Below are positions 1,687 through 32,000 of a stretch of 32,000 bases of DNA, piece after piece. Source of the DNA: Candidatus Iainarchaeum sp. (lineage in GTDB: Archaea; Iainarchaeota; Iainarchaeia; Iainarchaeales; 0-14-0-20-34-12); assembly GCA_030649345.1 (NCBI GenBank), contig JAUSKK010000038.1, positions 30,001 to 62,000 of the forward strand, in the 5' to 3' direction. The position numbers and the translations under genes are program-made. Numbering within the stretch: the stretch's first letter is position 1; each line of letters begins with the position of its first letter. The notes beneath the pieces were generated by a model. It did not search any database and was not told where the DNA came from. It was given only the letters and a program-made list of their open reading frames with translations.

Positions 1687-1697
1687 CAATTTTAAAC
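1687..1697 (-). promoter_or_regulatory. TATA-like A/T box for the DRG gene
   Basis: Minus-strand 'gtttaaaattg' is centred about 27 nt upstream of the start codon at 1665. Many genes in this window show the same spacing. Confidence 0.45.
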
Positions 1698-2440
1698 TAG
1701 ATTTTTCCGTTTTTTATTTTTTCCTGGGTTTCTGTGCTGGTTAATATTTCGTCTAATTCTTGTGCTAAACTGGCTCCGCCAAAAAGTACATATGGGTCTT
1801 TGCTGAGTTCTTGGATTTGGCGGCGGGCATTTTCTCGAAATTGAGCAATGGCTGTTTTGGATAATTGAGTTGAAGAAAGCAAACTAAGCACTGCATAGGT
1901 TTTTCCTAAATTGTATCTTGTGTGCACGCTTACTTCAAATGCTGGGCCCTTGGTTAATCCGGATCGTTCGGCTGCTTGAATTTGTGTTTTTTGTTCATTT
2001 AGCCAGGGTTGCATGCCTTGAATTAATTTTGCTACTGTTTTAGGGTGTTCTGATTGAATTGCCAATGCAGCTCGTGCTAAAAATAATCCCCGTTTTCCAG
2101 CGATAATAGGTTCTGGAACTTTTGAAATATATTGTGTTCCAATTAGTTCGTTTGCAAATCGTAAAATTTCAGAAACATCGCCTTGCTTGCCTAACCAATG
2201 TCCTGCTAAATCTGCATTTCCTTGGGTTAACAAACTCATAGCTCGTACTGTAAAGCCCCGCATGCTTCGAACAGTGCCAGTAGATTTTCGTGCAGGCAAA
2301 CCGTGTTTGGGAGTTTTTCCTTTTTGTCCTCCGCCTTCAGGTCCAAATTTTGTTTTTTTAAAATGTTTTAACAATCTTCGTTTTCGTCCAGTGGCCAGTG
2401 CTGCGCGAATTCTTCTAGCCATTCTTAACTTGAACACCAT
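1697..2440 (-). CDS. orphan protein with Arg/Lys-rich N-terminal tail (all-alpha body)
   Basis: 247-aa ORF with an ATG start. N-terminus is 'MVFKLRMARRIRAALATGRKRRLLKHFKKTKFGPEGGGQKGKTPKHGLPARK'. I recognise no family. It has its own A/T box about 26 nt upstream. Confidence 0.6.
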   Translation of the reverse strand: MVFKLRMARRIRAALATGRKRRLLKHFKKTKFGPEGGGQKGKTPKHGLPARKSTGTVRSMRGFTVRAMSLLTQGNADLAGHWLGKQGDVSEILRFANELIGTQYISKVPEPIIAGKRGLFLARAALAIQSEHPKTVAKLIQGMQPWLNEQKTQIQAAERSGLTKGPAFEVSVHTRYNLGKTYAVLSLLSSTQLSKTAIAQFRENARRQIQELSKDPYVLFGGASLAQELDEILTSTETQEKIKNGKI

Positions 2441-2462
2441 ACACTAGAAGGTATTCAATCAA

Positions 2463-2470
2463 CTATATTA
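2463..2470 (-). promoter_or_regulatory. TATA-like A/T box for ORF 1697-2440
   Basis: Minus-strand 'taatatag' is centred about 26.5 nt upstream of the ATG at 2440. Confidence 0.4.
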
Positions 2471-2514
2471 GCTTTGCGTTAAACTATTTTAAAATTAGTT
2501 TTTTTATGAATTTA

Positions 2515-3105
2515 TTATTTGTTTGCTGAAATTTTCCATACTTGTAATTCCTCAAACCAAATTTTTTCTTTGGCAATAATTTGAAACGAAAAATTCAGTT
2601 GAGCTAATTTTTTTTCAGTTTCTTTAACTCCATTTAAATTGGATTGCAAAAAATAGCACGATCCTTTTGGGTTTAAATAATTCGGTACTTGTTTTAAGAA
2701 TTTGTCTAAAATTTGTCTTCCTTTTTTTCCGCCGTCAATTTCCGGGATGGCTAAAGAATGACTTTCTACGTAAGGCGGGTTGAATACAATAGTGTCAAAT
2801 TTTTCTGTGATTGAAATTTTTTCAAATAAATTCGAATGAATCAATTTTAGGTTTTTTTTAAACCCTAAAGCATAAGCACATAATTCTGTATTTTTTAATG
2901 CAACTTCATTTACGTCTGCAGCTGTAGCTTGAGCTCCTTGCAGTAAAACATTGATGGTTTGAATGCCTGAACCACAGCCCATGTCTAAGGTTGTTTCTCC
3001 TTTTTGAATTTTTACTGTCTTGGCTAGCAAATATGAGTCTTCTCTGGGTTCGTATAAGGAATCCAGTAAAGGTAATTGTTTGTCTTTGAAAAAATAGTAT
3101 TTCAT
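2515..3105 (-). CDS. HemK-related / Mtq2-like SAM-dependent (glutamine-N5) methyltransferase
   Basis: 196 aa. N-terminal 'LYEPREDSYLL', SAM-binding 'LDMGCGSGIQ' and catalytic 'FNPPYV' (NPPY) motif, typical of the short archaeal HemK-like methylases. Confidence 0.85.
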   Translation of the reverse strand: MKYYFFKDKQLPLLDSLYEPREDSYLLAKTVKIQKGETTLDMGCGSGIQTINVLLQGAQATAADVNEVALKNTELCAYALGFKKNLKLIHSNLFEKISITEKFDTIVFNPPYVESHSLAIPEIDGGKKGRQILDKFLKQVPNYLNPKGSCYFLQSNLNGVKETEKKLAQLNFSFQIIAKEKIWFEELQVWKISANK

Positions 3106-3208
3106 ATATTCACTGTTTAATTAATTGTTAATAAAAAACAAATTTAAATATGTGTTTTTTCAAAGCTATTTAATTTAGTTTTTGAAACTGCCAATCATGT
3201 TGTAGAAA

Positions 3209-4141
3209 TTAAATTCGAAATGCAGAACGAACCAACTCAGGCAGGATATTGCGCATTCTATTCATTAATTCTTCAGTTTCAGGTACTGTCTTTCCAATGA
3301 TTCCAGCTGTTTGTATTGCGGTTCTTTTTTTAAGCACACATCGCAGTATTAGAGTGCCAGTAGATCCTAACTTTTTTGGAATTAATGCGTTTACTTGTTT
3401 AAAGGTTTTTTCTGTTAATGGTACAGGCCGTCGTTTTTTAGCCCAATATTTTTTGGCACGCGAAAGCAATCGTGCATATTCGCCGGTCTTTAATACTTCC
3501 GAGTAATCAAAACCCAGTGAAGTTAATGCTGTTTTATAATTAGGGTATCTTAATTTCAATCGAGCCCATAATTGCGGGTGAAATTTTTGTATGCGCTGGC
3601 CATAAATTGTTCCTTCTTGTTCGCGGATATGCTGAAGTAAAGTTCGATCTCGTTCATCCCTGTTTTTTTTGGCTTGTGTGCGGATTTCAGAATACGCGCG
3701 TTCCAATTCTAAATTACGTGCCAGTCGTTTTAAGGGTGCGCGTGCATCCACTCTGTTTTTTTTATATTTTTCGGGAAAAATTGCATGTGCAATAATGCTC
3801 CAGCCATCTTCTTTGGTTATATTTTCTTGTATTAATTTTTCCAATGACTCTGCAGAGACGGCTAACTTGTGTGTTCGAATAAATCGGTTAAGAAAATATT
3901 GCCGTTTTTGATCTGCAGTTAAATGAGTTCGGAATATTTTACGCAGTGTTTCCGGCCGCAGTCCTTTAGAAATTCGAGTGCTGATTTCATGTTCTGTTAA
4001 TCCTTGAGCACGCAATTCACAAGCTTCTGCAGCTGCTTGTTGAATGCGCTTCAGTCGTGCCTGCAGATTGGCTTGAAATCCAGCAGGAATTGTTCCTTTT
4101 TTACTGACAATCCAGGTTGCACGGTTTCCGAATTTTCGCAT
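3209..4141 (-). CDS. orphan Arg-rich protein with HTH-like segments
   Basis: 310-aa ORF with an ATG start. It is rich in Arg. HTH-like stretches include 'GLTEHEISTRISKGLRPETLRKIF' and 'RTAIQTAGIIGKTVPETEELMNRM'. No family recognised. Confidence 0.6.
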   Translation of the reverse strand: MRKFGNRATWIVSKKGTIPAGFQANLQARLKRIQQAAAEACELRAQGLTEHEISTRISKGLRPETLRKIFRTHLTADQKRQYFLNRFIRTHKLAVSAESLEKLIQENITKEDGWSIIAHAIFPEKYKKNRVDARAPLKRLARNLELERAYSEIRTQAKKNRDERDRTLLQHIREQEGTIYGQRIQKFHPQLWARLKLRYPNYKTALTSLGFDYSEVLKTGEYARLLSRAKKYWAKKRRPVPLTEKTFKQVNALIPKKLGSTGTLILRCVLKKRTAIQTAGIIGKTVPETEELMNRMRNILPELVRSAFRI

Positions 4142-4167
4142 AGGTATGCTAATTTTACGAACGAATG

Positions 4168-4177
4168 TATATAAATT
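4168..4177 (+). promoter_or_regulatory. TATA-like box upstream of glyA (possibly shared with divergent ORF 3209-4141)
   Basis: 'tatataaatt' is centred about 26 nt upstream of the ATG at 4198 and lies in the 56-nt divergent intergenic region. Confidence 0.45.
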
Positions 4178-4197
4178 ATTTGGAGTTCAATTTTTGC

Positions 4198-5460
4198 ATG
4201 TCTTCTAAATTATATGAAACTCATTTGAATGCCATTCAATCTTTTGATCCTGTATTGTCTGATTTGTTGGTGAAAGAAAAACAACGTCAAATGAATGGCT
4301 TGGAATTAATTCCTTCCGAAAATTTAGTTTCACAGGCAGTATTGGAAGCCATGGGTTCTGTTGCAACCAACAAATATGCAGAAGGTTATCCTGGTAAACG
4401 TTATTATGGTGGCAATGAATTTATTGATCAAATTGAACAATTAGCTATTGATCGAGCCAAGCAATTGTTTGGTGCAGAGCATGTAAATGTACAGCCCAAT
4501 TCAGGTAGTCCAGCCAATATGGCGGTATATTTTGCTTTAATGCAGCCTGGCGATACTTTTATGGGAATGCGTTTAGACATGGGCGGCCATTTAACGCATG
4601 GACATCCAGTTAATTTTTCTGGAAAATTATACAAATGCATTCAATATCCTGTAGATCCAAAAACAGAATTATTGGATTATGACTTAATTCGAAAAATGGC
4701 TTTAGAACATAAACCTAAAATTTTACTTTCTGGTTTTACTGCTTATCCCCGTGTCATTGATTTTAAAATTTTTCGTGAAATTGCAGACGAAGTTGGTGCA
4801 ATTTGTATGGCGGATATTGCACATATTGCTGGCTTGTGTGCTGTAAATGTTCATGAAAATCCTGTGCCTTATTTTGATGTAGTTACCACCACAACGCATA
4901 AAACATTAAGAGGCCCGAGAAGTGCCATTATTATGTGCAAAGAAAAATTTGGGGCAGCAATTGACAAGGCAATTTTTCCAGGATTGCAAGGCGGACCACA
5001 TGAACACATTATTGCAGGAAAAGCAGTTGCTTTCAAAGAAGCATTGCAGCCTGAATTCAAAAATTATGCTCAGCAAATTGTAAAAAATGCCAAAACTTTA
5101 GCCGATGAATTAACCAGTTTAGGTTTGCGTTTAGTTACTGGCGGAACAGACAATCATTTATTGTTGGTTGATTTAACTTCGAAAGGAATTTCTGGAAAAG
5201 AAGCAGAACATGCTTTGGATTCGATTGGAATTTATGTTAATAAAAATGCAATTCCTTATGATTCCAGAAAACCATTTGATCCTTCCGGTATTCGTTTAGG
5301 CACTCCAGTTTTAACCACTCGAGGCATGAAAGAATCAGAAATGAAAGAAGTTGCACGCTTGATTGTAAAAGCATTGGATTTGCATAAAGATTCTGAAAAA
5401 TTAAAAACTGTTCAATCTGAAGTTTTAGAATTATGCCAGCAATTTCCATTCTATAAATAA
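4198..5460 (+). CDS. glyA: serine hydroxymethyltransferase
   Basis: Full-length colinear SHMT with '[11 protein letters not shown]', '[10 protein letters not shown]' and the PLP-lysine motif '[12 protein letters not shown]'. I prefer the ATG at 4198 ('[10 protein letters not shown]') over the ATG at 4165 that opens the track ORF. The extra 11 residues '[11 protein letters not shown]' have no counterpart in SHMTs, and the A/T box spacing fits 4198. Confidence 0.95.
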
Positions 5461-5470: not shown

Positions 5471-6328
5471 TTATTCTATTACGCTGGCCACAATTTTTTT
5501 GAATACTTCCCAAGGTCTTTTGTCTGGGCCTAAATAGGTTGCTCGTTTTAATTCAGTTTCTGCTTGCAGGACTGCACTTAATGCATGGGCATGCATTTCA
5601 CGGTATCTATACAATGTTCGTGCATTGTGTTCTGTTTCCGGTAAACTGGCATTAATTAATGCTCGGGTTGTTTTGTAAATTTCTGCATGAATAATTCCAG
5701 CGCCTTGCATGATTCGCATTCGATCTAGTCTATCTGGGCCTAAATTTACGACTGAAACAAACATGGCTTTGTCGGCAACAGCTTTGGCTTTCTGCAATAA
5801 TTTTTCAGTAATTTCATTGGCATGTTGTCGATCTAAAAAATGATTTTGAATGGTTCCTCTGGCTGCGTCATTGAATAAAACTCCTAAATGAATTACATGT
5901 GAACCTGTAAATGTTTCCCGTGTTTTTTCAGTTTGTTCTCGTAAAATTCGTTTAATCTCTTTCCATTCTCCGGCTTTTGCAAAATGAAAAATAGCATCTC
6001 TGGGTTGTCCTGTGTGTTCAGCTTTTTTGGCTTCTGTGATGGCAGTTCGAATTTGGTCTTTTTTTTCTTTTTGCTTTCTTTGTTCGGTTTCATTTAATTT
6101 TTCTTTTCCTAGCAATCCAACTTCACTGGTTTCTACGCGTGTGAACTGTTTTCGTAGTTCTGGAGGTGTTCGTTCCCAGGATCCAATGGCTCCTAAAATT
6201 GTTTCTCGAATTTCTCTGCGTTCTCCTGGCTTAGGTGTAGGAGTTCGAAATAATCCAGTGGTTTTTCGAACTCGTTCAAATGTTTTTGCCAACAAACGAG
6301 TTTTTGCAGGTCTGGGTGTTTTGGGCAT
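5471..6328 (-). CDS. orphan protein with basic Pro/Arg-rich N-terminal tail
   Basis: 285-aa ORF opening 'MPKTPRPAKTRLLAKTFERVRKTTGLFRTPTPKPGERRE'. It starts 3 nt after the stop of ORF 6332-7024, so the two are probably an operon. It shares a motif with ORF 8702-9439 (see findings). Confidence 0.6.
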   Translation of the reverse strand: MPKTPRPAKTRLLAKTFERVRKTTGLFRTPTPKPGERREIRETILGAIGSWERTPPELRKQFTRVETSEVGLLGKEKLNETEQRKQKEKKDQIRTAITEAKKAEHTGQPRDAIFHFAKAGEWKEIKRILREQTEKTRETFTGSHVIHLGVLFNDAARGTIQNHFLDRQHANEITEKLLQKAKAVADKAMFVSVVNLGPDRLDRMRIMQGAGIIHAEIYKTTRALINASLPETEHNARTLYRYREMHAHALSAVLQAETELKRATYLGPDKRPWEVFKKIVASVIE

Positions 6329-6331: not shown

Positions 6332-7024
6332 TTATTCTCCGTGAAATCTTTGCAATGCTTCATCTACAGCATCGGCTAAATTGTCTGCGCGCAAAATTAT
6401 TGAAATTGCTCTTCCTTCTTCCATTCCTGCAATTTTAATTAGTTCTCGATTTATGGTTAAGGCTGTTTGTTCATAGGATTTTATTTCCGGAAATGCTCTG
6501 GCTAAAGTTGCATACATAATAGCAGTTCCATAAATTTCATTGGTTGTTGCTTGCCGTGCTCTGACTTTTCTGTACAAAGTTCCTGCAATGGTTCCAGCTG
6601 TGTCTTGGAGTCTTCGAATTTTTTCTAGTTTAGTTGCAGCAGCTGCTTCGTTTTCTGGAAACCATTCTTTTAATCCGATTGCAGCTACTGCAGTAAAGCA
6701 GCCACGCATAATATTCAAGCCTTCTGGTTTAGCGTGCGGAAAAATAGTTTGAAGATGATGGTCTTTGAGTCTTTCTTCAATTAAATCTGGTTCTCCTAAA
6801 CTGCCCATTAATCGCATGGCTTTTCCTACTTTTCTTTGTCGAATGTGAATTTCAGCACTGTCAATAATATTGCCTAAAGTTCTTGTTCCAATTCCTATTC
6901 CAGCTGCCCGCATAGTAGTTGTTCCAGTTCCTGGCTTGTAAGCAGGTTCAATTGGTTTTCCAGCTGGTTTTCTTTTGGGTAAAAATCTTTCCAGAAATCC
7001 TGGTCTTCTAGGCGGTTTAAGCAT
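6332..7024 (-). CDS. orphan protein with basic Pro/Arg-rich N-terminal tail
   Basis: 230-aa ORF opening 'MLKPPRRPGFLERFLPKRKPAGKPIEPAYKPGTGTTTMR'. The body is helical and Ala-rich. An A/T box lies about 26 nt upstream. Confidence 0.6.
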   Translation of the reverse strand: MLKPPRRPGFLERFLPKRKPAGKPIEPAYKPGTGTTTMRAAGIGIGTRTLGNIIDSAEIHIRQRKVGKAMRLMGSLGEPDLIEERLKDHHLQTIFPHAKPEGLNIMRGCFTAVAAIGLKEWFPENEAAAATKLEKIRRLQDTAGTIAGTLYRKVRARQATTNEIYGTAIMYATLARAFPEIKSYEQTALTINRELIKIAGMEEGRAISIILRADNLADAVDEALQRFHGE

Positions 7025-7045
7025 AGTTTCACGTGTTTTTTTGTA

Positions 7046-7055
7046 CTATATATAG
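7046..7055 (-). promoter_or_regulatory. TATA-like box for the 6332-7024 / 5471-6328 operon
   Basis: 'ctatatatag' is centred about 26.5 nt from the start codon at 7024. Confidence 0.45.
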
Positions 7056-7071
7056 TTTACTGCATTCCTTG

Positions 7072-7081
7072 TTTAAAATTA
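7072..7081 (+). promoter_or_regulatory. TATA-like box for the membrane-protein/folD unit
   Basis: 'tttaaaatta' is centred about 26.5 nt upstream of the ATG at 7103. Confidence 0.45.
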
Positions 7082-7102
7082 ACTCTTTACAGGTAATTAT
7101 AT

Positions 7103-7837
7103 ATGACTCATTTTTCTGCTTTTATTTTAACTGTATTGAACATACTTAGTTCTCTTTTTTTAGTAGTTGGATTTTTGTATCTTCGCCAAGTTTTTGCTAA
7201 AGCATATCAAGTAACCAAGCAAAAATCGCATGCCAACTGGCTGTATTTGTTTATGGTTTTGTTTTTGATTCGTCCTTTGGCTGATTTATACTTTCTAATC
7301 ACTGTAGATACTACTGTAACTGGCTCTATAGATATTTTCACTCGTTTTACAACCATTGCAGCTGCAGGTATTTTGGCTTTGATTTGTTTAGAGTTTAAAG
7401 ATTTAATTCAATTAAAATTAGCTAACTTGCAGTCCATTAAATTAACTGTTTTCTTTTTTGTTTTGATTTATTTGTCGGTTGGTTTTTTGTTTTTGCCAGT
7501 AGACATTTTTTTCACTGAATTGTTATTTTTGGTTTTGTATGGTTTGTTCTTTTTTTCAGCTTGGGTTGTGGCATCGTATGCTTCTTTGTTTGCCAGTGTC
7601 TTTCCTTTAAGCCAGACTTTGTATGGAATTGCAGTGATTTTATTGCTGGCTCCCATTATTCGAATGATTTTATTTTTAACCCATCCTTTGGATTCGTTTG
7701 CTACTTTTTCTTTTTTAGAATTCACCCGCTTGATTAGTTTGTTATTGACTTTAGCGATCTCTTTTTTATTGGTTGTATCCATGTATGTATTTAAGAAAGT
7801 CGTAATCGAACGAAGGCTTTCAAGTTCTTCTCAGTGA
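7103..7837 (+). CDS. polytopic (about 7-TM) membrane protein, function unknown
   Basis: 244 aa with about seven hydrophobic segments, for example 'FILTVLNILSSLFLVVGFLYL', 'WLYLFMVLFLIRPLADLYFLI' and 'LISLLLTLAISFLLVVSMYVF'. Its stop is 5 nt before the folD start. Confidence 0.65.
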   Translation: MTHFSAFILTVLNILSSLFLVVGFLYLRQVFAKAYQVTKQKSHANWLYLFMVLFLIRPLADLYFLITVDTTVTGSIDIFTRFTTIAAAGILALICLEFKDLIQLKLANLQSIKLTVFFFVLIYLSVGFLFLPVDIFFTELLFLVLYGLFFFSAWVVASYASLFASVFPLSQTLYGIAVILLLAPIIRMILFLTHPLDSFATFSFLEFTRLISLLLTLAISFLLVVSMYVFKKVVIERRLSSSSQ

Positions 7838-8701: not shown

Positions 8702-9439
8702 TTATTTAACTCTTGTATGTCTTCTGCTAATGGGGATCACAGGCGCATAGGCTCTAGGTTTGAGTTCTTGCCGGTTTGCTCGTCCTATTAATTCTTGGGA
8801 GGATACACCCAGCAATGTTGCAATTTCAATGGCTTCAATTCCTTTGTTTGCTTGATTTAATTCAATTGCGATTTCTTTGGCTCGTGCAAAATATTTGCTT
8901 TCGGATCTCCCTTTTCCCAATTCAGCATAGGTTACGGCCAGTTCTTTTTTCAAAATTGTTTTGTATTCAGTTTCAGGCATTGCATCAATGGCTTTTCTTA
9001 AACGTTTAGTCATTAATCCGAATTCGTTTATTAATTCCCGGTAAGCTGTGTGTTGTTCAAGAGAATGAACTTCAGCAATTCGTTCCAATCCTTTAATGGC
9101 TTTCATTTGAATTCGAGCAAAACTCAATATTGTTTTAGCTGAAGCAGTTTTGTCTATTTTTTGAATTTCTTGTTTTTTTAAAAAATTTTCAAAAACGCGT
9201 TTTATTTTGTCTAAGGACCCTGCTTCACCGAAATGTTCTGCGGCTTTTTCAAAATTTTTGCCAGCCAATTGCCGTTCTCCTAATTGAATCAATTCAAGTG
9301 AACGTTGTTTGTGTTTGCGTACTTTTTTTGCCTTGGCCAAACGTTCTTTTGCATTAGTCCATTTAGTTTGAACTTGTTTCCATTTTTCTTTAGTCCAAAC
9401 TTTTACGATTCGTGAAGTAGGAATTCGATAGGATTTCAT
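8702..9439 (-). CDS. orphan Lys/Arg-rich helical protein with C-terminal HTH-like segment and basic C-terminal tail
   Basis: 245-aa ORF. It has the HTH-like stretch 'GIEAIEIATLLGVSSQELIGRAN' and ends 'PRAYAPVIPISRRHTRVK'. It shares the motif 'HFGEAGSLDKIKRVF' with ORF 5471-6328. Confidence 0.6.
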   Translation of the reverse strand: MKSYRIPTSRIVKVWTKEKWKQVQTKWTNAKERLAKAKKVRKHKQRSLELIQLGERQLAGKNFEKAAEHFGEAGSLDKIKRVFENFLKKQEIQKIDKTASAKTILSFARIQMKAIKGLERIAEVHSLEQHTAYRELINEFGLMTKRLRKAIDAMPETEYKTILKKELAVTYAELGKGRSESKYFARAKEIAIELNQANKGIEAIEIATLLGVSSQELIGRANRQELKPRAYAPVIPISRRHTRVK

Positions 9440-9458
9440 ATAGTAAACCTTGTTTTTG

Positions 9459-21992: not shown

Positions 21993-21994
21993 TT

Positions 21995-24300: not shown

Positions 24301-24400
24301 CTTGGTTTTTTTTGCAAAAATAAAAACAAACCTGAAATAGGCTTTTTCTTGCATTTGCATAGTTTTTTAAATTAATTTAGTATCAATTAACTAATCATTT

Positions 24401-24405
24401 GGAGG
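24401..24405 (+). promoter_or_regulatory. strong Shine-Dalgarno site (GGAGG) for ORF 24412-25110
   Basis: 'ggagg' lies 6 nt upstream of the ATG. The A/T box 'ttttttaaatta' (24364-24375) lies further upstream, which implies a leadered mRNA. Confidence 0.55.
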
Positions 24406-24411
24406 CTTTAT

Positions 24412-25110
24412 ATGAATAAATCTTTTTTAACCGTTGGCTTATTGTTGGTCATAGCTTTGTTGGTATTTGGTTGCACGAATTCAACTACTTCAACTACTGG
24501 TTCTACTGGAACTGGTGTAAGCAATCCTTTGACTGCGTTTGCTCAAACATTTAGTAATCAAGCACCGGCTGGTTTTTCAATTACGTATAATATGAATTTA
24601 ACTGGAACTCAAACAAGCAATTCTGTGTATGTTAGTCAAAATAAATTCAGAACAGACAGTACCTTTAATGGTGTTCAAACTCGAGTCATTGTCACGGATG
24701 CTATTGCTGCTGTATGCAATCAAGAAAATAGTGTATGGCAATGTGTTGAAACTCCTGCTACTCCAGAAGAAAAACTGCAAGTCTATAATTCAACTTCTTT
24801 AAATCAAGCACAATTGGATGAATTGAATAAATTCCAAATTACGGAAGCTCCTTCTAGAACTGTTTTAGGAATTGCTGCAAAATGTTTCAATATGTCTAGG
24901 ACAGACGACAATGATACACCGGAAACAACCGATGACGAAACTGTTACAGGTTTAACGTGTTATCATCCGAATGCATTTGTAACCTTGTATTCTGAATTGA
25001 ATACTTCACAAGGCAATTTAGTTCAGGAAGCAACTGCTGTAAGCTTAACTGCTCCAGCAGATTCAGAATTTGCTTTGCCAGCTGCATTAACCAGCCAGCC
25101 AACGGAATAG
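24412..25110 (+). CDS. secreted lipoprotein-like protein (paralogue of 26684-27460)
   Basis: The signal peptide and Cys 'LLLVIALLVFGC' are followed by the Thr/Ser/Gly linker 'TNSTTSTTGSTGTG' and a globular domain with conserved Cys ('AAKCFNMS', 'LTCYHPNAF'). It ends 'APADSEFALPAAL'. Confidence 0.7.
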   Translation: MNKSFLTVGLLLVIALLVFGCTNSTTSTTGSTGTGVSNPLTAFAQTFSNQAPAGFSITYNMNLTGTQTSNSVYVSQNKFRTDSTFNGVQTRVIVTDAIAAVCNQENSVWQCVETPATPEEKLQVYNSTSLNQAQLDELNKFQITEAPSRTVLGIAAKCFNMSRTDDNDTPETTDDETVTGLTCYHPNAFVTLYSELNTSQGNLVQEATAVSLTAPADSEFALPAALTSQPTE

Positions 25111-25140
25111 AATTAACTATTCAATAGAATTATTTGCAGT

Positions 25141-25186
25141 GGAACAGAATAAACTGTTCCTAGTTTTCTTTTTTTATTTTTTTAAT
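25141..25186 (+). terminator. hairpin plus oligo-T terminator after ORF 24412-25110
   Basis: A perfect 7-bp stem 'ggaacag'-aataaa-'ctgttcc' (25141-25160) is followed by 'tagttttctttttttattttttt'. Confidence 0.55.
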
Positions 25187-25292
25187 TAATTTTTTGTTTT
25201 TTTAAAATTAGATTTTTGTTAATTGGAATTTGTTTTTATTTTTTAAGTTCTATTTTAAAAATTAGTTTTTTGAATTTTTAGTTTTTTGCGAA

Positions 25293-26564
25293 TTAAACTT
25301 TTTTAATTAATTGCATTCGTTCTGCTCCAATTCCAATTAATTTAATGGGAACATTTAATTCGTGTTCAATGAATTCAACATATTTGCGTGCACTTTGCGG
25401 TAATTCGTAATAGTTTTTGATTTCATTTGCATTAAAGTCAAATCCAGGCAAAGTCAAATAATCGGGTTCGCATTTTCCTAATTCTTGAATGGTTGCAGGC
25501 AAATCATGCAGACAAGTTTCTCCTTTATGATAACCTGTGCAAATTTTAATTTCCTTTAATCCAGACAATACATCTAATTTGGTTAAAGCAATTTCGCTGA
25601 CATTGTTTAATCTTCTGGCAGTTCTTAATTGCACTAAATCTAACCATCCCACTCGTCTAGGTCTTCCAGTGGTTGTTCCAAATTCGTTTCCTTTGGTTCT
25701 AAGTTCTTCTTCTAAAGATCCGTTCATTTCTGTAATAAATGGTCCAGAACCAACTCGGGTTGTATAGGCTTTAGCTATTCCAATTACTTTATCAATTACA
25801 TTCGGGCCTAAACCTACTCCGACCAATGCATGCGCTGCCAAAGGATGAGAACTGGTCACAAACGGATAAGTTCCAAAGTCATTGTCTAAAAAAGTTCCTT
25901 GAGCGCCTTCAAATAAAATTTTTTTATTATTTCGCAAAGCATTATCTAACAATAAAGAAACATCTCCCATAAAAGGCTTGATTTTTTTTCCATATTCGAC
26001 ATATTCTTTGAGTAAATCTTCTAATTTGAGTGTATCTTGGACACCATATACTTTTTCTAAAATTGCTTTTTTGGTTGGCAGAATTTCTTTTAATTTTTCT
26101 TCCAATCTTTTTTCGTCAATAATATCTTCAATTCGAATTCCTGTACGAGAAGCTTTGTCTGCATAACAAGGGCCAATGCCTCGTTTGGTGGTTCCAATAT
26201 TTCCAACACCGCTTTTGGTTTCCACAACTTCATCTAAAAGAATATGGTACGGCATGATGACTTGCGCGCGAGGATCAATGACTGCATTGATTGAATCGAA
26301 ATTTTTTTGAGCAGTTTCAATTTCTTGAATTAGTCCTTGCGGATTAATGACCATGCCGGCTCCCAGCATGACTTGTTTTTTTTGAAGAATTCCAGAAGGA
26401 AGTAAATGAAACTTGTATACTTTGTCTCCAACCACTACAGTATGCCCTGCATTGTTTCCGCCTTGATAGCGTACCACAATATCGGCATCTTTAGCAATAT
26501 GGTCGGCAATTTTTCCTTTGCCTTCATCGCCCCATTGCAGGCCTACAATAATCCAAGCTGACAA
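25293..26564 (-). CDS. purA: adenylosuccinate synthetase
   Basis: 423 aa with 'GLQWGDEGKGKI', 'GGNNAGHT', 'IGTTKRGIGP' and 'GTTTGRPRRVGWLD'. It starts at TTG 26564. There is no in-frame ATG before the upstream stop. Confidence 0.93.
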   Translation of the reverse strand: MSAWIIVGLQWGDEGKGKIADHIAKDADIVVRYQGGNNAGHTVVVGDKVYKFHLLPSGILQKKQVMLGAGMVINPQGLIQEIETAQKNFDSINAVIDPRAQVIMPYHILLDEVVETKSGVGNIGTTKRGIGPCYADKASRTGIRIEDIIDEKRLEEKLKEILPTKKAILEKVYGVQDTLKLEDLLKEYVEYGKKIKPFMGDVSLLLDNALRNNKKILFEGAQGTFLDNDFGTYPFVTSSHPLAAHALVGVGLGPNVIDKVIGIAKAYTTRVGSGPFITEMNGSLEEELRTKGNEFGTTTGRPRRVGWLDLVQLRTARRLNNVSEIALTKLDVLSGLKEIKICTGYHKGETCLHDLPATIQELGKCEPDYLTLPGFDFNANEIKNYYELPQSARKYVEFIEHELNVPIKLIGIGAERMQLIKKV

Positions 26565-26671
26565 ACAGGTTCCCTTCAGAATTTTAGTTCCAACTGGCTT
26601 TTAAAGCAAAGCGTTTTTTGTAAAGAAATCTTTTTAAAGAACAAATTCCTATATTTTGTATACTTTTTAAT

Positions 26672-26676
26672 GGAGG
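26672..26676 (+). promoter_or_regulatory. strong Shine-Dalgarno site (GGAGG) for ORF 26684-27460
   Basis: 'ggagg' lies 7 nt upstream of the ATG at 26684. Confidence 0.55.
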
Positions 26677-26683
26677 TAATTCA

Positions 26684-27460
26684 ATGAATTTTAAATCAAT
26701 TCTAATCATGGCTTTTGTTGCCTTGATTATTGCAGGATGTACTCAACCGCCTGCCAATGGTGGAACTGGAGCTAATGCAGGAACTGCAGGCAATGGTGCT
26801 GGTGCAGCCGGCGGAGCTAATGGAAATGGAGTAGCTCAAGAAATTAGTCAATTGGGAAGTGCTCCAACAGATTATTGTATAACGTATACTACTGGAACAA
26901 ATACTGAAGCCTATGGTGGCGGATCATTTGATGCAGTTGTTGAATATTGTTTAAAAGGAACTGACAAAGTTACCAATATAAGCTTTGGCGGCGGAACTCC
27001 TGGAACACCCGGTGCAGCTCCTGAAATTGTAATGACAAATTATTGTTTGCAAAATGGAACTGTAGCTAAGACTTGCGGTTCAGGTTATTGTTCGGATGAT
27101 TCAAGCGGTTGTAGTGGAATGGAAGAACCTTTTGCTACTGCAAACTGGAATGAATCTGACTTAATGTATTACAAGAAAACAGCAGACCGAACTGTTGCAG
27201 GTGTTCAAGCTAAATGTTATTCTGTGAATTTGAATGAATTAGCTCAACAAGCAGGAGCCAATATTGGCGGAGAAACATTGCCTGCTGGATCGGATCGAGT
27301 GGAATTTTGTTTCCATCCGCAATACAAACAATTTTTGTATTATGCTTTTGGTCCAACAACAGTACAAGTTACTAATTATGTAACTCCTGCGCCGGCCAGC
27401 AAATTTGTTTTGCCTGCAGATACTGGTGCAGTTGATCCGTACGGAACTCAAACAGGTTAA
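26684..27460 (+). CDS. secreted lipoprotein-like protein (paralogue of 24412-25110)
   Basis: The signal peptide and Cys 'FVALIIAGC' are followed by a Gly/Ala/Asn linker and a Cys-containing globular domain ('VQAKCYSVN', 'VEFCFHPQY'). It ends 'APASKFVLPADTG', which parallels the other copy. Confidence 0.7.
   Translation: MNFKSILIMAFVALIIAGCTQPPANGGTGANAGTAGNGAGAAGGANGNGVAQEISQLGSAPTDYCITYTTGTNTEAYGGGSFDAVVEYCLKGTDKVTNISFGGGTPGTPGAAPEIVMTNYCLQNGTVAKTCGSGYCSDDSSGCSGMEEPFATANWNESDLMYYKKTADRTVAGVQAKCYSVNLNELAQQAGANIGGETLPAGSDRVEFCFHPQYKQFLYYAFGPTTVQVTNYVTPAPASKFVLPADTGAVDPYGTQTG
26747..26833 (+). repeat. low-complexity Gly/Ala/Asn linker coding region
   Basis: It encodes 'PANGGTGANAGTAGNGAGAAGGANGNGV' directly after the lipobox-like Cys. 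The DNA is made of reiterated gga/ggt/gct/aat units. Confidence 0.7.
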
Positions 27461-27469
27461 ATAGTTTAG

Positions 27470-27510
27470 AGAAAAGAGCTTTGGCTCTTTTCTTTCTCTT
27501 TTATTTTTTT
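27470..27510 (+). terminator. hairpin plus oligo-T terminator after ORF 26684-27460
   Basis: A perfect 10-bp stem 'agaaaagagc'-tttg-'gctcttttct' (27470-27493) is followed by 'ttctcttttattttttt'. Confidence 0.6.
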
Positions 27511-27547
27511 AAATACTCTTTTAAATTCTTCTATTCCCTAAGGTTTT

Positions 27548-28975
27548 ATGTTGCGTGCCTTAACTTTTGATGATGTTCTTCTTCTGCCGCAAAAATCTGA
27601 TATTTTACCCAAAGATGTTTCTTTGCGCACTAAATTAACGAATAATCTTGAACTCAATATTCCATTAATTACTGCTGCCATGGATACTGTGACTGAAGCC
27701 AAGACTGCGATTGCGATCGCCAAGCAAGGTGGAATTGGAATTATTCACAAAAATATGAGCATTGAAGCTCAAGCTGAACAAGTGGCTAAAGTAAAAAGGT
27801 CCGAAGCATTGATTGTAGAAAATCCAGTGACTGTTGCTCCCAATCAAACTTTGGCTGATTTATGGTTTATTAAAAAATCTCAAGGAATTTCTAGTTTTCC
27901 GGTAGTTCAAAATGGAAAATTAGTTGGCTTGGTTACCAATCGAGATATTCGTTTTGAAAGCAATGGTTTGAAAAAAGTTTCTGAAATGATGACTAAAGAT
28001 TTAGTTACTGTAAATAAAAAAGTTGGAGCCAGTGAAGCGATTGAAATTTTACGCAAAAATAAAGTAGAAAAATTGCCCATTGTAGACAAGCAAGGAAAAT
28101 TGCAGGGATTAATTACCAGTACAGATATTTTAAAGAAACAAAAATATCCAAATACTTTGACAGACCATCAAGGAAAATTACGCGTTGGAGCTGCCATTGG
28201 TCCAAAGGATTTTGACAGAATTGAAAAACTAATTTCTGCTGGAGTAGATGTAATTGTTTTAGACACTGCGCATGGTCATTCTTTGAATGTGATTAATGGA
28301 ATTAAAAAAATTAAAAAAGAATTTCAAATTGAATTAATTGCAGGAAATGTTGGAACTGCTCAAGGGGCTAAAGATTTATTGAATGCTGGCGCGGATGCTA
28401 TTAAGGTAGGAATTGGCCCGGGCGTAATTTGCACTACTAGAATTATTACTGGCTGTGGTGTTCCGCAGTTAAGTGCAGTGCAGGCTTGTGTGAAAGCTGT
28501 AGGTGAAGATATTCCTGTTATTTCAGACGGTGGAATTCGTTATTCGGGTGATATTGTAAAAGCTTTGGCTGCTGGTGCTTCGAGTGTAATGATTGGTTCT
28601 TTGTTTGCTGGCTGTGATGAAACTCCAGGTAAACTAATTTATTTAAACAATCGAAAATTCAAACAATACAGGGGCATGGGTTCCCTGGGGGCAATGATCG
28701 AAGGTTCCAAGGATAGGTATATGCAAGCTGATGTTATGGATAAAGACAAATTAGTTCCAGAAGGAGTAGAAGGAATTGTTCCATTTAAGGGAACTGTGGC
28801 TGAAGTATGTTTTCAGTTATTGGGCGGCTTAAAAGCCGGAATGGGAATGCAGGGTGCCAAAAATATTGCAGTATTGCAAAAAAATGCAGAATTTATAGAA
28901 TTAACTTTTGCCGGATTAAAAGAAAGCCATCCGCATGATATCAAAATCACAGAAGAAGCACCGAATTACTCGTAA
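27548..28975 (+). CDS. guaB: IMP dehydrogenase (with CBS pair)
   Basis: 475 aa with '[10 protein letters not shown]', '[12 protein letters not shown]', a CBS-pair insert, 'VLDTAHGHS', the catalytic loop '[11 protein letters not shown]' and 'YRGMGS'. Confidence 0.95.
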
Positions 28976-28983
28976 ATTTTTTA

Positions 28984-30183
28984 ATGTTTATGTCTTTTTC
29001 AAAAATTGAGTCTGCAGTCAAAGATTTGAAAGTTGGAAAAATTATTATTGTTGTAGACGACAAAAATAGAGAAAACGAAGGAGACTTTGTTTGCTCGGGC
29101 CAGAAAATTTCTCATCAAAAAATTAATTTCATGATCCAGCATGGCCGCGGTTTGGTGTGTGCTCCAGTTTCTGAACAAATTGCTTCTCAGTTTAATTTAT
29201 TTTTAATGACCAATCCAAGAGATTCCATGCATACCCGTTTTACAGTTTCCATTGATTTAAAACAAGGCACCAGTACAGGAATTTCTGCAGATGATAGATC
29301 TAAAACCATTCAAGCTTTATGCAATACTTCCTTAAATGAGCAGGCTTTTTCTAAACCAGGCCATGTGTTTCCTTTAATCGCACGACCTGGAGGAGTACTT
29401 CAACGAGCCGGTCATACTGAAGCTTCGATTGATTTATTAAAATTAGCTGGCTTGAAAGAGGTTGGAGTTATTTGTGAAATTATTAAAGATGACGGAAAGA
29501 TGGCCCGCTTGCCTTTTTTGAAAAAATTTGCATTAAAACATAAACTGAAAATTATTTCCATTGAAGACTTAATTCAATACAGGCTGTCTCAAGAACGTTT
29601 AGTGGAAAAAGTGATTACGACTACTTTGCCAACTGAATTCGGCGAATTTCGAGCCATTGGTTTTCGAGACACTGTCATGAACGGACAATATTTGGTTTTA
29701 GCTAAAGGCAGTCCAGAAAATAAAAAAAATGTATTGGTTCGCGTTCATTCAGGCTGCATGACTGGTGATGTTTTTTTTTCCAAGAAATGCGATTGCCGGG
29801 AACAATTAACTGAAGCCATGAAACGAATTCAAAAAGAAGGTCAAGGAATTATTTTATATATTGCTCAACACGAAGGCCGAGGAATTGGTTTATTGAATAA
29901 ATTAAAAGCCTATTCTTTGCAAGAACAAGGCTATGATACTGTGGAAGCCAATCAAGAATTGGGATTCAAAGCAGATATGCGGGAATATGGAATTGGAGCC
30001 CAGATTTTACGTGAGCTAGGCTTAACGTCCATTCGTTTGCTTTCGAATAATCCGAAGAAAATCATTGGCTTGAATGCCTATGGTTTAAAGATTGTAAAAC
30101 AAATTCCATTAACCATTAAGCCCAATAAATACAATGCCAATTATTTGAAAACCAAGAAAACCAAATTAGGGCATTTGATGTAA
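28984..30183 (+). CDS. ribBA: bifunctional 3,4-dihydroxy-2-butanone-4-phosphate synthase / GTP cyclohydrolase II
   Basis: 399 aa. RibB half: 'VVDDKNRENEGDFV' and 'RAGHTEASIDL'. RibA half: 'VRVHSGCMTGDVF...CDCREQL' and 'HEGRGIGLLNKL'. It begins 8 nt after guaB. The ATG at 28990 is an alternative start. Confidence 0.93.
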   Translation: MFMSFSKIESAVKDLKVGKIIIVVDDKNRENEGDFVCSGQKISHQKINFMIQHGRGLVCAPVSEQIASQFNLFLMTNPRDSMHTRFTVSIDLKQGTSTGISADDRSKTIQALCNTSLNEQAFSKPGHVFPLIARPGGVLQRAGHTEASIDLLKLAGLKEVGVICEIIKDDGKMARLPFLKKFALKHKLKIISIEDLIQYRLSQERLVEKVITTTLPTEFGEFRAIGFRDTVMNGQYLVLAKGSPENKKNVLVRVHSGCMTGDVFFSKKCDCREQLTEAMKRIQKEGQGIILYIAQHEGRGIGLLNKLKAYSLQEQGYDTVEANQELGFKADMREYGIGAQILRELGLTSIRLLSNNPKKIIGLNAYGLKIVKQIPLTIKPNKYNANYLKTKKTKLGHLM

Positions 30184-30269
30184 TGCTTTTTTTTTAAATA
30201 ACCTAATTTTAGATATATTTATATATTTAGGTGACGTAAATATGTAATTAAGTGGTGTAAGGTGGTTTT

Positions 30270-30515
30270 ATGAAAGGCAGTGTGATTACTATTGCAATTA
30301 GCAAAGAGAGTGAGAAATTGTTGAGAACATTGGCCAGTGAAGAATTTGGCCATGAAAAAGGTGCATTGGGTAAAACAGTAAGTATGGCTATTCATTCTTT
30401 GATGGAAAAGAAAAAAAGAAAAATTGCTTCGGATGCACTTTTGGCTGATATGGCAAAAGGTTTTCATGGCGGTGGATTTAATGGGTGGAAAAATCGAAAT
30501 GAAATTTACGACTAA
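30270..30515 (+). CDS. vapB: VapB-like antitoxin (ribbon-helix-helix-like N-terminus)
   Basis: 81 aa beginning 'GSVITIAISKESEKLLRTLA...GALGKTVSMAIHSLME' (strand-helix-helix pattern). 'aaggtgg' lies 4 nt upstream. The 3' end overlaps the PIN gene. Confidence 0.65.
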   Translation: MKGSVITIAISKESEKLLRTLASEEFGHEKGALGKTVSMAIHSLMEKKKRKIASDALLADMAKGFHGGGFNGWKNRNEIYD

Positions 30516-30933
30516 AGTTTTGTTAGATACCAATATTTTGATATATGCTTACGAACAAGATAACCTGGTAAAATGTTCAATTGCCCGCAAGTGTATTGAA
30601 GAAATATCCAGCACAAATGAAATGATTTTATCTATTCAAAATTTGGCTGAGTTTTCCCGGGTTGCTAAAGAAAAACTTAAAAGTCCTCTTTCTTCTTCTG
30701 AAATAAAGTCTCATTTAAAGATCTTTGAAAAAAGTTTTACAATTATTTATTATTCGTCCAGTTCTATTGAAGTTGCGCTTGAACTCGTGGACAAGTACGG
30801 AATCCATTTTTTTGATGCTTTATTAACTGCAACGATGAAAGAAAATGGAATTAACACAATCTTAACTGAAAATGAAAAAGATTTTAACAAAATTCCTTGG
30901 CTGAACGTAGTTAATCCGTTTAAGCGTGCATAG
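30499..30933 (+). CDS. vapC: PIN-domain ribonuclease toxin (VapC)
   Basis: 'MKFTTKVLLDTNILIYAY' is followed by the conserved acidic positions 'LAEF', 'FFDALL' and 'TENEKDF'. I chose the start at ATG 30499, with 30481 as an alternative. It overlaps vapB by 17 nt. Confidence 0.85.
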   Translation: MKFTTKVLLDTNILIYAYEQDNLVKCSIARKCIEEISSTNEMILSIQNLAEFSRVAKEKLKSPLSSSEIKSHLKIFEKSFTIIYYSSSSIEVALELVDKYGIHFFDALLTATMKENGINTILTENEKDFNKIPWLNVVNPFKRA

Positions 30934-30964
30934 TCTTTTTATAGTTCAAATTCATTCTTTTATT

Positions 30965-31570
30965 ATGCCTATTCCATCTAAGCGAATTCAAATATTGCTA
31001 GCTACTCCAGATTCTAAGCTTTCTGAATTTGAATTAAAAGTAAAAAAAGCGCAATTGGATGCTTTAACTCGTTTGGCCGAACATCGCATTCATAAACGGC
31101 CTTTTTTTCAAGGAAAGTCTCTTGCAGATTTTTCAGTAATGCATACGCCTGAATTTGAGAAAGATTCTTTACTATTTTTTTCTGCCCAAATAGCTATGGT
31201 TCATGCAATGCATTGGTATTCGGATAACGGAAAAAAGCTTTTGACTATGGATCATTTTCGCGATTTATTTGCTTTTGCAGCTCACGCCTATCATCCTGCT
31301 TTGGTGGAAGTTTTTCCGCGAAGATTTTTACGGTATGCTGAAGAGAATAATTTAAAGGTTCTTCCGTTGAAGCGTTTGCAAATCATGGCTGCGCGAGGTT
31401 TAACGCGAGAACTTTCCGGACTATTAGCTCATGCTGCTGGATTAAATCCACGAGATGTTTTATTTAGGTTTACTGGGTTTCCTTCAATTATTCATTCTCC
31501 GGGCACGCGTAAGTCTAGAGTAAAACTTAAACCTAGAATAAATTTACGGAAAAAGCCTAAGCCAAAATAA
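30965..31570 (+). CDS. orphan helical protein with basic C-terminal tail (tandem paralogue 1)
   Basis: I prefer the ATG at 30965 ('MPIPSKRIQILLATPDSKL'). The GTG at 30926 would overlap the vapC stop. It ends 'TRKSRVKLKPRINLRKKPKPK' and shares motifs with the next ORF. Confidence 0.6.
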   Translation: MPIPSKRIQILLATPDSKLSEFELKVKKAQLDALTRLAEHRIHKRPFFQGKSLADFSVMHTPEFEKDSLLFFSAQIAMVHAMHWYSDNGKKLLTMDHFRDLFAFAAHAYHPALVEVFPRRFLRYAEENNLKVLPLKRLQIMAARGLTRELSGLLAHAAGLNPRDVLFRFTGFPSIIHSPGTRKSRVKLKPRINLRKKPKPK

Positions 31571-31610
31571 TTTCAGAAGATTTAAATTGAAGTTTGATGT
31601 ATTCTTTTAA

Positions 31611-32000
31611 ATGCCGGATTCTTTTATTCCTTTAGCTCAGTTGTTGAAAACGCCTGATCGTGATTTGGAGCCTTTGGCTGTTGTAGCCAAGCATTCTCAA
31701 TTTCAATTATTCACTGCTTTGAAGTTATTTCGCACAGGTAACTTGAACGGAAGTATTGGAAAAGGAAAGCAAAGAATTCCTTCCAATGCTGAATTATTTG
31801 TTTTAGAAAGCAGATTAAACATAATTGCTGAAGATGCTTTGGCTTCTGTTTTATTGTGGCGAACCAATAATGGAAGAAAAGTTTTGGAAACACGAGTAGC
31901 TCAAGATTTAATTTTGTTTGCAAAATCCAAATATCCTTTGGGTTTTGTTCAAAAACTAGCCAGGCATTTTGAGCATGCAATTGAAAAACACGAAATTGCT
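31611..32000 (+). CDS. orphan protein, tandem paralogue 2 (3' end outside window; not in ORF track)
   Basis: My own translation from ATG 31611 is open for 130 codons to the window end: 'MPDSFIPLAQLLKTPDRDLEPLAVVAKHSQFQLF...LLWRTNNGRKVLETRVAQDLILFAKSKYPLGFVQKLARHFEHAIEKHEIA'. It aligns with ORF 30965-31570 ('LLATPD', 'WYSDNGKKLLT'). Confidence 0.6.
   Translation, partial: MPDSFIPLAQLLKTPDRDLEPLAVVAKHSQFQLFTALKLFRTGNLNGSIGKGKQRIPSNAELFVLESRLNIIAEDALASVLLWRTNNGRKVLETRVAQDLILFAKSKYPLGFVQKLARHFEHAIEKHEIA

Follow-up and report, generated by a model that had tools for sequence, protein, structure and literature searches.

Arginine-rich orphan genes lying between conserved housekeeping genes of a Diapherotrites archaeon: candidate DNA-binding proteins of restricted phylogenetic distribution

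What are the genes without recognizable relatives that interrupt a run of ordinary enzyme genes in Candidatus Iainarchaeum sp., where do they come from and what could their products do? The question is raised by a stretch of 32 000 nucleotides (nt) of this archaeon (assembly GCA_030649345.1, contig JAUSKK010000038.1 of 86,314 bp, positions 30,001 to 62,000), hereafter called the window, which has a G+C content (GC) of 34.8% and contains 38 densely packed genes. A prediction made from the sequence alone (the original prediction) had singled out 13 open reading frames (ORFs), said to make up about a third of the genes, as a lineage-specific and expanded set of Arg-rich proteins that bind nucleic acids or are targeted by their tails. 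All 13 are present at the coordinates and on the strands given below, the N- and C-terminal peptides that had been quoted are exact in every case, and the proportion is right (13 out of 38, i.e. 34%). We refer to these genes as orphans and designate them, where convenient, by their first coordinate. PGAP labels 12 of them ‘hypothetical protein’ in a Candidatus Diapherotrites metagenome-assembled genome (locus tags Q7S92_04840 to _05015); the 13th, 31611-32000, continues past the end of the window. The same sequence is present on independent Logan contigs (run SRR13727527), and since the adjacencies between orphans and housekeeping genes are identical there, the arrangement is not an artefact of assembly.

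The property that distinguishes the 13 orphans from the other 25 genes of the window is first of all their composition. Arg accounts for 9.9% of their residues, as compared to 2.6% in the rest, and the ranges per gene (6.2-18.2% and 0.4-5.8%) are disjoint (Mann-Whitney p = 6e-7), while the two sets do not differ in Lys (9.5%). Most of the orphans bear a tail rich in Arg, Lys and Pro at one end. The net charge per residue is +0.11 instead of +0.02, the isoelectric points (pI) of the orphans lie between 9.7 and 12.0, their net charges between +5 and +40, and they contain very little Cys (0.1% versus 1.4%). Their first 25 residues have a mean charge of +5.8, as against +1.0 in the other genes (p = 4e-4), and include on average 9.3 Arg, Lys or Pro residues instead of 4.0; motifs of the [RK]P[RK], PRP/PKP and R.R types are enriched 5- to 25-fold in the orphans and are concentrated in the tails. 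Besides Arg, the residues Ala, Pro and His are more frequent in the orphans, and Asn, Tyr, Ile and Phe, as well as Gly, are less frequent. The contrast in Arg usage between the orphans and their neighbours, and the accompanying contrast in GC, had been anticipated from short samples; the four values of GC counted there by hand (0.45, 0.408, 0.28 and 0.317) are exact and both contrasts hold with full-length statistics on pI, Arg:Lys ratio and GC.

A higher GC could be a mark of foreign origin, but its distribution over the codon does not have that appearance. Whole-gene GC is 0.379 in the orphans and 0.340 in the other genes (p = 4e-4); the values at codon positions 1 and 2 (GC1 and GC2) are 0.487 and 0.416 versus 0.436 and 0.321, and at position 3 (GC3) there is no excess, since the orphans are at 0.233 and the other genes at 0.263. 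Relative synonymous codon usage (RSCU) in the orphans correlates with that of the other genes with r = 0.96, to be compared to 0.94 between two halves of the other genes, and preferences among Arg codons are alike. With an excess restricted to GC1 and GC2 and with a host-like synonymous usage, the higher GC follows from the amino-acid content and not from a foreign nucleotide composition. The usual test for recently acquired genes, deviant GC3 or synonymous usage, thus revealed no deviation of the orphans from the host: they are native-looking genes and not recent imports.

That these ORFs are protein-coding is supported by several features of the sequence. Eleven of them have 114-310 codons, and a twelfth reaches 130 of its 202 codons before the window ends. 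Because stops make up about 7% of random codons in DNA of 35% GC, ORFs of 114-310 codons are not expected by chance; long competing ORFs are absent. The ORFs respect the periodicity GC1 > GC2 > GC3, and host codon usage gives the annotated frame the best score in 12 out of 13 cases, 30965-31570 being marginally better in one antisense frame. For 5471-6328 an orthologue was found, P0011 (294 amino acids (aa), ENA ERZ27297570), which is 68% identical (80% positives) over the whole length; the match runs from end to end and includes the N-terminal tail and the tail motif TGLFRTPTPKPGE. The contig of P0011 also keeps the neighbours of 5471, with a gene resembling 6332 upstream and a convergent one downstream. 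Within this pair, 22 of the 28 Arg are invariant, which, when set against the overall identity of 68%, suggests that Arg is selected. To judge from these criteria, the orphans appear to be genuine protein-coding genes, with a reservation for the 55-aa 18522-18689.

Signals for expression are found at the expected places. It had been proposed that each orphan either has its own A/T box or is tightly coupled to a neighbour, and this is what we observe: nine have a box, eight of these beginning between -26 and -31 relative to the ATG and the ninth, that of 3209, at -40; the distance of the eight is like that in the leaderless housekeeping genes of the window (-26 to -32 for both), and the other four orphans lie close behind a neighbour. 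Among the latter, 5471 (3 nt) and 10117 (-7 nt) are preceded by a Shine-Dalgarno-like sequence, 18710 follows at 20 nt, and 18522 has a Shine-Dalgarno-like motif together with an A/T box at -47. Divergent pairs with a neighbour, separated by spacers of 51-78 nt, are formed by four orphans: 3209 with the SHMT gene (4142-4197, if SHMT starts at 4198), 6332 with 7103 (7025-7102), 8702 with purN (9440-9490) and 13674 with the MTHFS gene (13621-13673). Three of the four spacers (51-56 nt) have a single A/T box, often palindromic (TATTTTTAAATA), located at about 30 nt from both starts; the fourth, of 78 nt, has two separate boxes. These spacers look like compact bidirectional archaeal promoters giving leaderless mRNAs, each of which would pair a housekeeping gene with an orphan. 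Divergent spacers, operon overlaps and short gaps taken together argue for a real and host-integrated expression of the orphans. As to the SHMT ORF, listed as 4165-5460, its start is probably the ATG at 4198 and not 4165, because the relatives align only from residues 13-20 onwards and because, with a start at 4198, the shared A/T box lies at -30.

Searches for homologues were largely negative. A Pfam scan (E <= 1, or E <= 0.1 for three orphans) assigned a single one, 12174-13043, through a helix-turn-helix (HTH) domain, HTH_23 (28.4 bits for a cut-off of 24.6); HTH_11 (E = 2.6e-5) and other HTH models also match, and a hidden Markov model (HMM) of its repeats delineates five tandem HTH modules. 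The same HMM finds no module in the other orphans. The statement that none of the ORFs can be placed in a family is therefore valid for 12 of them and wrong for 12174-13043. With NCBIfam, PHROGs and PADLOC, nothing emerged from the larger orphans beyond the HTH pieces of 12174; phmmer comparison of three orphans with the sequences of the PDB gave no match, nor did a tblastn comparison of the 13 orphans with 50,697 phage and 72,556 plasmid records. Four scans of IMG/VR found no relatives of the orphans, and JGI metagenome scans with the motifs common to 5471 and its orthologue and with the C-terminal motif of 10117 and 18710 found no match. Given the empty IMG/VR, phage and plasmid searches, a viral or plasmid origin is without support. 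The window itself shows no sign of mobile, proviral or defence cargo (no meaningful direct or inverted repeats, no integrase or recombinase, no island), and the orphans are scattered singly or in pairs. PADLOC, PHROGs, phage, plasmid and repeat searches thus all agree with the earlier remark that the set does not resemble a defence or mobile system.

Searches of full databases covered two orphans, 3209 and 5471. For 3209-4141, an exhaustive phmmer comparison with 1.84 billion cluster representatives returned only the protein itself and two weak repeat matches. One of these, P0013, is a Pfam HNH_repeat protein (homing-endonuclease-associated repeat, HEAR, PF18780), one unit of which is resembled by residues ~165-219 of 3209; the PF18780 model itself does not match 3209 at E <= 1. 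For 5471, the orthologue P0011, from a closely related metagenomic organism, is the only one among 5.8 billion proteins. The 12 orphans that were looked up (all except 31611-32000) are singletons at 90% identity, if alternative-start duplicates are set aside. AlphaFold2 models of 5471 with its orthologue (predicted local distance difference test, pLDDT, of 43) and of 3209 alone (pLDDT of 56) are both all-helical.

Do the orphans at least form one family, as the word ‘expanded’ in the original prediction implied? Comparison of all against all with BLASTP, hhalign and HMMs links two pairs only, every other pair having E > 0.01, so that an expansion in the sense of a paralogous family is not supported. 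The first pair is 10117 and 18710, which share a paralogous C-terminal domain of about 57 aa (hhalign 92%, E = 6e-7) with the motif F[ST]D..LM..Y...KF.ELTGR. The second is formed by the tandem paralogues 30965 and 31611 (27% identity, BLASTP E = 5e-8; hhalign 89%, E = 2.5e-6). The orphans would appear, then, to be a compositional and architectural class and not the expansion of one gene.

Their origin can be approached by comparison with related genomes. The nearest sequenced relatives, several of which are labelled Diapherotrites, were recognized through their TyrRS homologues (60-65% identity). Seven of their loci (L031, L033, L034, L037, L038, L039 and L041) have a block of genes in the order RibBA-IMPDH-PurA-RimK-RimK-RimB-GNAT-NMNAT-TyrRS-Yip1-(HSP20)-161aa-MTHFS-SHMT-membrane protein-FolC-PurB-CysRS, with short junctions (e.g. 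~50-110 nt for NMNAT-TyrRS and TyrRS-Yip1). The window (13057-30183 and SHMT) keeps the order RibBA, IMPDH, PurA, RimK twice, RimB, NMNAT, TyrRS, Yip1, MTHFS and SHMT, and its junctions are occupied by further genes, namely, besides the Arg-rich orphans, two for lipoproteins, one for a beta-helix protein, a CYTH gene and a purN-purH-folD group. In none of the seven syntenic loci are the orphans present. Comparison by tblastn with three of the loci gave matches of 37-69% identity for the housekeeping proteins of the window and none for the orphans; conversely, the proteins of six related loci have no match, in any frame, in the orphan regions. Locus L031, whose GC (34%) is similar to that of the window, has no comparable Arg-rich class, and in relatives with a GC of 39-48% the housekeeping proteins contain 6-13% Arg, as expected from GC. 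Since the loci of the relatives are devoid of them, the orphans represent gains of this lineage and a close sister, and they appear to have been gained by insertion at the junctions of the conserved housekeeping block. The epithet ‘lineage-specific’ is thereby borne out, the 68% orthologue of 5471 being the only homologue found and all seven syntenic loci being without orphans.

Three other candidate origins or counterparts were considered and set aside. In L034, which belongs to a relative with a GC of 48%, a gene for a basic protein of 257 aa without family (4587-5360, Arg 8.9%, pI 10.1) lies upstream of TyrRS as does 20235-20915; we rejected it as a positional orthologue of the latter, the two sequences being dissimilar. 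That the orphans could be frame-shifted or antisense remnants of block genes of the relatives (GNAT, HSP20, FolC and others) was rejected on the basis of tblastn in all frames. Birth de novo from intergenic DNA is unlikely, as the junctions of the relatives measure 50-110 nt and the orphans are long and richer in GC than the AT-rich spacers.

What then could be the role of the orphans? The most probable answer, to which we attach moderate confidence, is that these lineage-restricted insertions, which are genuine genes but do not make up one family, encode DNA-binding proteins, acting by a mechanism that we infer as follows. The products would be local transcription regulators or nucleoid-associated proteins specific to the lineage, in which helical modules of the HTH type would recognize sequence or shape and in which tails rich in Arg, Lys and Pro, of the AT-hook or histone-H1-like sort, would dock in the narrow minor groove of an AT-rich (35% GC) genome. 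AT-hook and H1/SPKK-type tails bind AT-rich DNA, and Arg is reportedly inserted preferentially into narrow AT-rich minor grooves. Docking of this kind would explain why Arg is retained instead of Lys, which mutation favours. The housekeeping proteins, under mutational bias, have 2.6% Arg, so that selection for Arg itself would be needed to reach about 10% at unchanged Lys; a composition that opposes the mutational bias of the genome would thus point to selection for Arg and hence to a function, the binding of AT-rich DNA. The orphans would use promoters of the host: nine, with their own TATA-like box, would be expressed from leaderless or short-leader mRNAs, four of these from a bidirectional spacer common with a housekeeping gene, and others would be translationally coupled within host operons, e.g. 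purN-10117-purH.

Known DNA-binding proteins offer partial parallels. With its five tandem modules, 12174-13043 is like multi-HTH proteins (HTH_23, HTH_11, sigma-70 region 4-like), residues 165-219 of 3209-4141 align with HEAR (PF18780) units, and all the modules assignable in the orphans are of DNA-binding types. Unlike multi-HTH or HEAR proteins, however, the orphans reach a curated threshold in one case only, have no nuclease, transposase or sigma core domain, and in the other 11 cases show no significant match. The short, Pro-punctuated runs of Arg and Lys in the tails (e.g. KPKPARRVRLPRKVLRPKP, KPPRRPG...PKRKPAGKP and KLKPRINLRKKPKPK), in an AT-rich genome, resemble the tails of AT-hook, histone-H1/SPKK, HupB and Hc1 proteins; this is a likeness that we take to be one of composition only, the binding being predicted from it. 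Unlike AT-hook proteins, the orphans have no canonical RGRP core and contain two RGR motifs in total. No homology of the orphans to known nucleoid proteins was found.

A number of points weigh against DNA binding as a general explanation. The sequence supports it directly for one protein, 12174, and hints at it for a second, 3209; for the rest, the nucleic-acid binding of the original prediction is deduced from charge and from Arg/Pro-rich tails. None of the other 12 orphans attains the gathering score of the HTH clan, so that the set as a whole is not an HTH family, and scans of putative HTH stretches in these orphans, segment by segment, gave only sub-threshold Pfam matches (E = 0.017-0.16); of the ‘many’ orphans once credited with HTH-like segments, 12174 alone is confirmed by Pfam, and for 11 of the 13 the segments are putative. 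Foldseek comparison of the models of 5471 and 3209, which are of low confidence, with the PDB yielded nothing at E < 3. Binding of RNA or of another polyanion would yield the same composition. The higher contents of Ala, Pro and His and the lower ones of Asn, Tyr, Ile and Phe resemble what a GC-richer source would produce, and a part of the Arg excess could therefore be historical. Finally, the DNA examined amounts to 32 kb of the genome.

The last but one of these points leads to the main rival explanation, according to which the Arg content is a relic: the orphans would stem from an old transfer out of an unsampled GC-richer source (DPANN mobilome, viruses or GC-richer relatives), their synonymous sites would have been ameliorated since, and Arg would reflect history. 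The confinement of the GC excess to codon positions 1 and 2, the set of residues raised and lowered, the 6-13% Arg in housekeeping proteins of relatives with 39-48% GC and the status of the orphans as insertions with respect to seven related loci would all be accounted for, and orphans have classically been ascribed to phage or mobile sources (quoted in PMC11293555). Yet searches of phages, plasmids and IMG/VR, of JGI metagenomes and of 1.84 billion protein clusters have turned up no donor or relative, the RSCU is host-like with a GC3 that is if anything lower, Lys is undepleted, and Gly, a residue with GC-rich codons, is depleted instead of enriched. Moreover, 22 of 28 Arg are invariant in an orthologue pair that has diverged to 68% identity, and the genes are scattered singly, without flanking repeats, integrases or islands. 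We consider this explanation unlikely on balance. A much more mundane possibility is that the ORFs are mis-called, being non-coding or read in the wrong frame, their Arg richness then being an artefact of translation. An ORF such as the 55-aa 18522-18689 could indeed arise by chance, one antisense frame of 30965-31570 has a marginally better score, and comparative support is limited to one orthologue. But the length of eleven ORFs, with a twelfth cut by the window end, the lack of long competitors, GC periodicity and host RSCU in favour of the annotated frame in 12 of 13, promoter and Shine-Dalgarno signals at the right distances, the 68% orthologue with its 80% positives, and the failure to find either Rfam or tRNA matches or remnants of genes of the relatives in any frame make it barely credible; it is effectively refuted for most of the ORFs, the 55-aa 18522-18689 excepted.

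It may also be that the orphans are 13 paralogues of a single, ancient and fast-evolving basic helical protein, diverged past recognition. They do have a common architecture, a basic tail followed by a helical body of ~200 aa, two pairs of paralogues are detectable, one of them in tandem, and a weak motif, G...A..HF..AG....I.R, can be seen by eye in 1697, 5471, 6332 and 8702 (hhalign E = 0.04). But hhalign, BLASTP and HMM comparisons of all against all show nothing besides the two pairs, a profile built from 5471 and its orthologue gives no match to another orphan at E < 0.4, and lengths (55-310 aa) as well as architectures differ, 12174 having five HTH modules where the others have none detectable; a common ancestry of all 13 thus seems very unlikely. 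A different function is conceivable too: the orphans could bind RNA, for example as lineage-specific ribosome-associated proteins as in reduced genomes, or be exported, the Arg-rich tails serving as delivery or cell-penetrating signals for effectors acting on a host cell, which is how the tail targeting of the original prediction can be understood. Arg-rich motifs and basic termini fit the binding of RNA as well as that of DNA, and many DPANN archaea are thought to be host-dependent. However, Pfam and NCBIfam scans revealed no RNA-binding domain in the orphans, inspection of the sequences found no hydrophobic core of a signal peptide after the tails, the genuinely secreted proteins and lipoproteins encoded in the window are acidic and have little Arg, and the only domains assigned are of DNA-binding type, all of which makes such roles quite unlikely in our opinion.

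Among known categories of genes, the closest to the orphans of the window is that of prokaryotic orphan (taxonomically restricted, ORFan) genes, of which they are an atypical variant, and no new system has to be invoked. Like these, they have no detectable homologues beyond a narrow lineage, are inserted among conserved genes, show faster evolution than the genes around them and are annotated as hypothetical. Typical prokaryotic orphans measure about one third of the length of conserved genes, have a GC equal to or lower than that of the genome and use fewer optimal codons (PMC11293555, also quoting Daubin and Ochman 2004). By contrast, those of the window are long (114-310 aa for 11 of 13), GC-richer at codon positions 1 and 2, have the same synonymous usage as core genes and constitute a separate Arg-rich class. 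In the full-text literature on Arg-rich proteins of DPANN archaea or on properties of Diapherotrites orphans, we found no description of this pattern.

The significance of the observation depends on its extent. Were the pattern genome-wide, it would offer an unusually clean natural case of the origin and wiring of orphan genes in a minimal archaeal genome, with insertion points readable against seven syntenic relatives and with new genes that borrow bidirectional TATA boxes or slot into operons through overlapping stop and start codons. One may go further and imagine, if the window is representative, a second compartment of the proteome: a third of the genes would encode fast-evolving, Arg-rich, Cys-free, basic helical proteins of unrelated origins, recruited into host operons and bidirectional promoters, which would form a layer of chromatin, nucleoid or regulation, or else act as host-cell effectors, and which have no counterpart in the syntenic sisters. 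This is a speculation that we regard as rather improbable. If the pattern is not genome-wide, we would be dealing with an ordinary patch of fast-evolving DNA-binding orphans. In any case, what goes under the name of ‘hypothetical protein’ in DPANN archaea is not homogeneous, since acidic secreted or membrane proteins can be told apart here from a separate basic, Arg-rich class.

Taken one by one along the window, the orphans differ in size and setting. On the minus strand, 1697-2440 (247 aa, Arg 7.7%, pI 10.7, net charge +24) has a basic N-terminal tail of ~60 aa followed by a helical body, its own A/T box at -30, and no family in Pfam, PHROGs, PADLOC or NCBIfam. Also on the minus strand, 3209-4141 (310 aa, Arg 11.3%, net charge +37) is all-alpha and divergent from SHMT, with one A/T box in the 56-nt spacer. 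The next two, again on the minus strand, form an operon of two orphans: 6332-7024 (230 aa, Arg 9.1%), divergent across 78 nt from the membrane-protein gene 7103-7837, begins with a Pro/Arg/Lys-rich tail in which 14 of the first 25 residues are Arg, Lys or Pro, and is followed after a 3-nt spacer, with GGAG at -12, by 5471-6328 (285 aa, Arg 9.8%). The minus-strand 8702-9439 (245 aa, Arg 8.2%, Lys 13.9%) has its basic tail, ISRRHTRVK, at the C-terminus and is separated from the divergent purN by 51 nt containing the single palindromic box TATTTTTAAATA. On the plus strand, 10117-10674 (185 aa, Arg 11.4%, pI 11.6) sits inside the purN-purH operon, where it overlaps the stop of purN by 7 nt and the start of purH by 4 nt and has GAGGA at -11; 12174-13043 (plus strand, 289 aa) has 12.8% Arg and a net charge of +40; and 13674-14018 (plus strand, 114 aa, Arg 10.5%), with the N-terminal tail MHPVKPKPARRVRLPRKVLRPKP, is separated from the divergent MTHFS gene by 53 nt, in which the two have a common A/T box. 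The weakest call is 18522-18689 (plus strand, 55 aa, Arg 18.2%, pI 12, Q7S92_04935 in the PGAP annotation), which is doubtful because ORFs so short are expected by chance. It is followed on the same strand by 18710-19156 (148 aa, Arg 10.1%, pI 11.6), which has an internal KKKPAYKKRKPKKKK stretch. On the minus strand, 20235-20915 (226 aa, Arg 9.7%), with its own A/T box at -30, precedes tyrS, which has the same orientation, by 9 nt. The last two are on the plus strand: 30965-31570 (201 aa, Arg 8.5%) ends in the basic tail TRKSRVKLKPRINLRKKPKPK, and 31611-32000, cut by the end of the window, has a full length of 202 aa on the Logan contig L040, where a V4R-domain gene comes after it.

The remaining genes are mostly of well-known types. 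For the proteins of the window, Pfam confirmed the housekeeping genes named earlier and added more: a DRG-type GTPase (523-1665), a small methyltransferase, SHMT, FolD, PurN, PurH, the 5-formyl-THF cyclo-ligase (MTHFS gene), a beta-helix surface protein, Yip1 and DUF4430 membrane proteins, TyrRS, a CYTH protein, an NMNAT-like protein, a RimB-like protease, two RimK ligases, PurA, IMPDH, RibBA and a PIN toxin. Searches of the window for tRNAs and Rfam families gave no match. The purN-purH-folD span (9491-12161) is missing from the block that the seven related Diapherotrites loci have in common, and the best matches of PurH among GTDB species genomes are bacterial (Sutterellaceae, Chlorobi, Bacteroidota; 39-45% identity), which together suggest that bacterial-type purine/folate genes were acquired by the lineage. 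The NMNAT-like ORF, listed from a GTG at 21399, overlaps the CYTH gene by 116 nt (region 20954-21992); since its Pfam match begins only at residue 60, the true start is probably near 21510. Two tandem RimK-type ATP-grasp ligases (22505-24300) adjoin a RimB-like aspartyl or zinc protease (21995-22414). Six of the seven related loci keep the RimK-RimK-RimB trio, together with a GNAT acetyltransferase that the window does not have. Near the 3′ end, an 81-aa ORF on the plus strand (30270-30515) precedes and overlaps the PIN-domain gene (region 30270-30933) and is a called gene on the Logan contig; the two are likely to be a toxin-antitoxin pair, and the 104-aa ORF 30219-30533 on the minus strand is probably spurious. 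Lastly, 24412-25110 and 26684-27460 encode acidic (pI 4.3-4.4), low-complexity proteins rich in Thr, Gly and Ala, with lipobox-like N-termini (LLVFGC and LIIAGC); they flank purA, are also inserted in the conserved block and constitute a second, Arg-poor class of lineage-specific genes.

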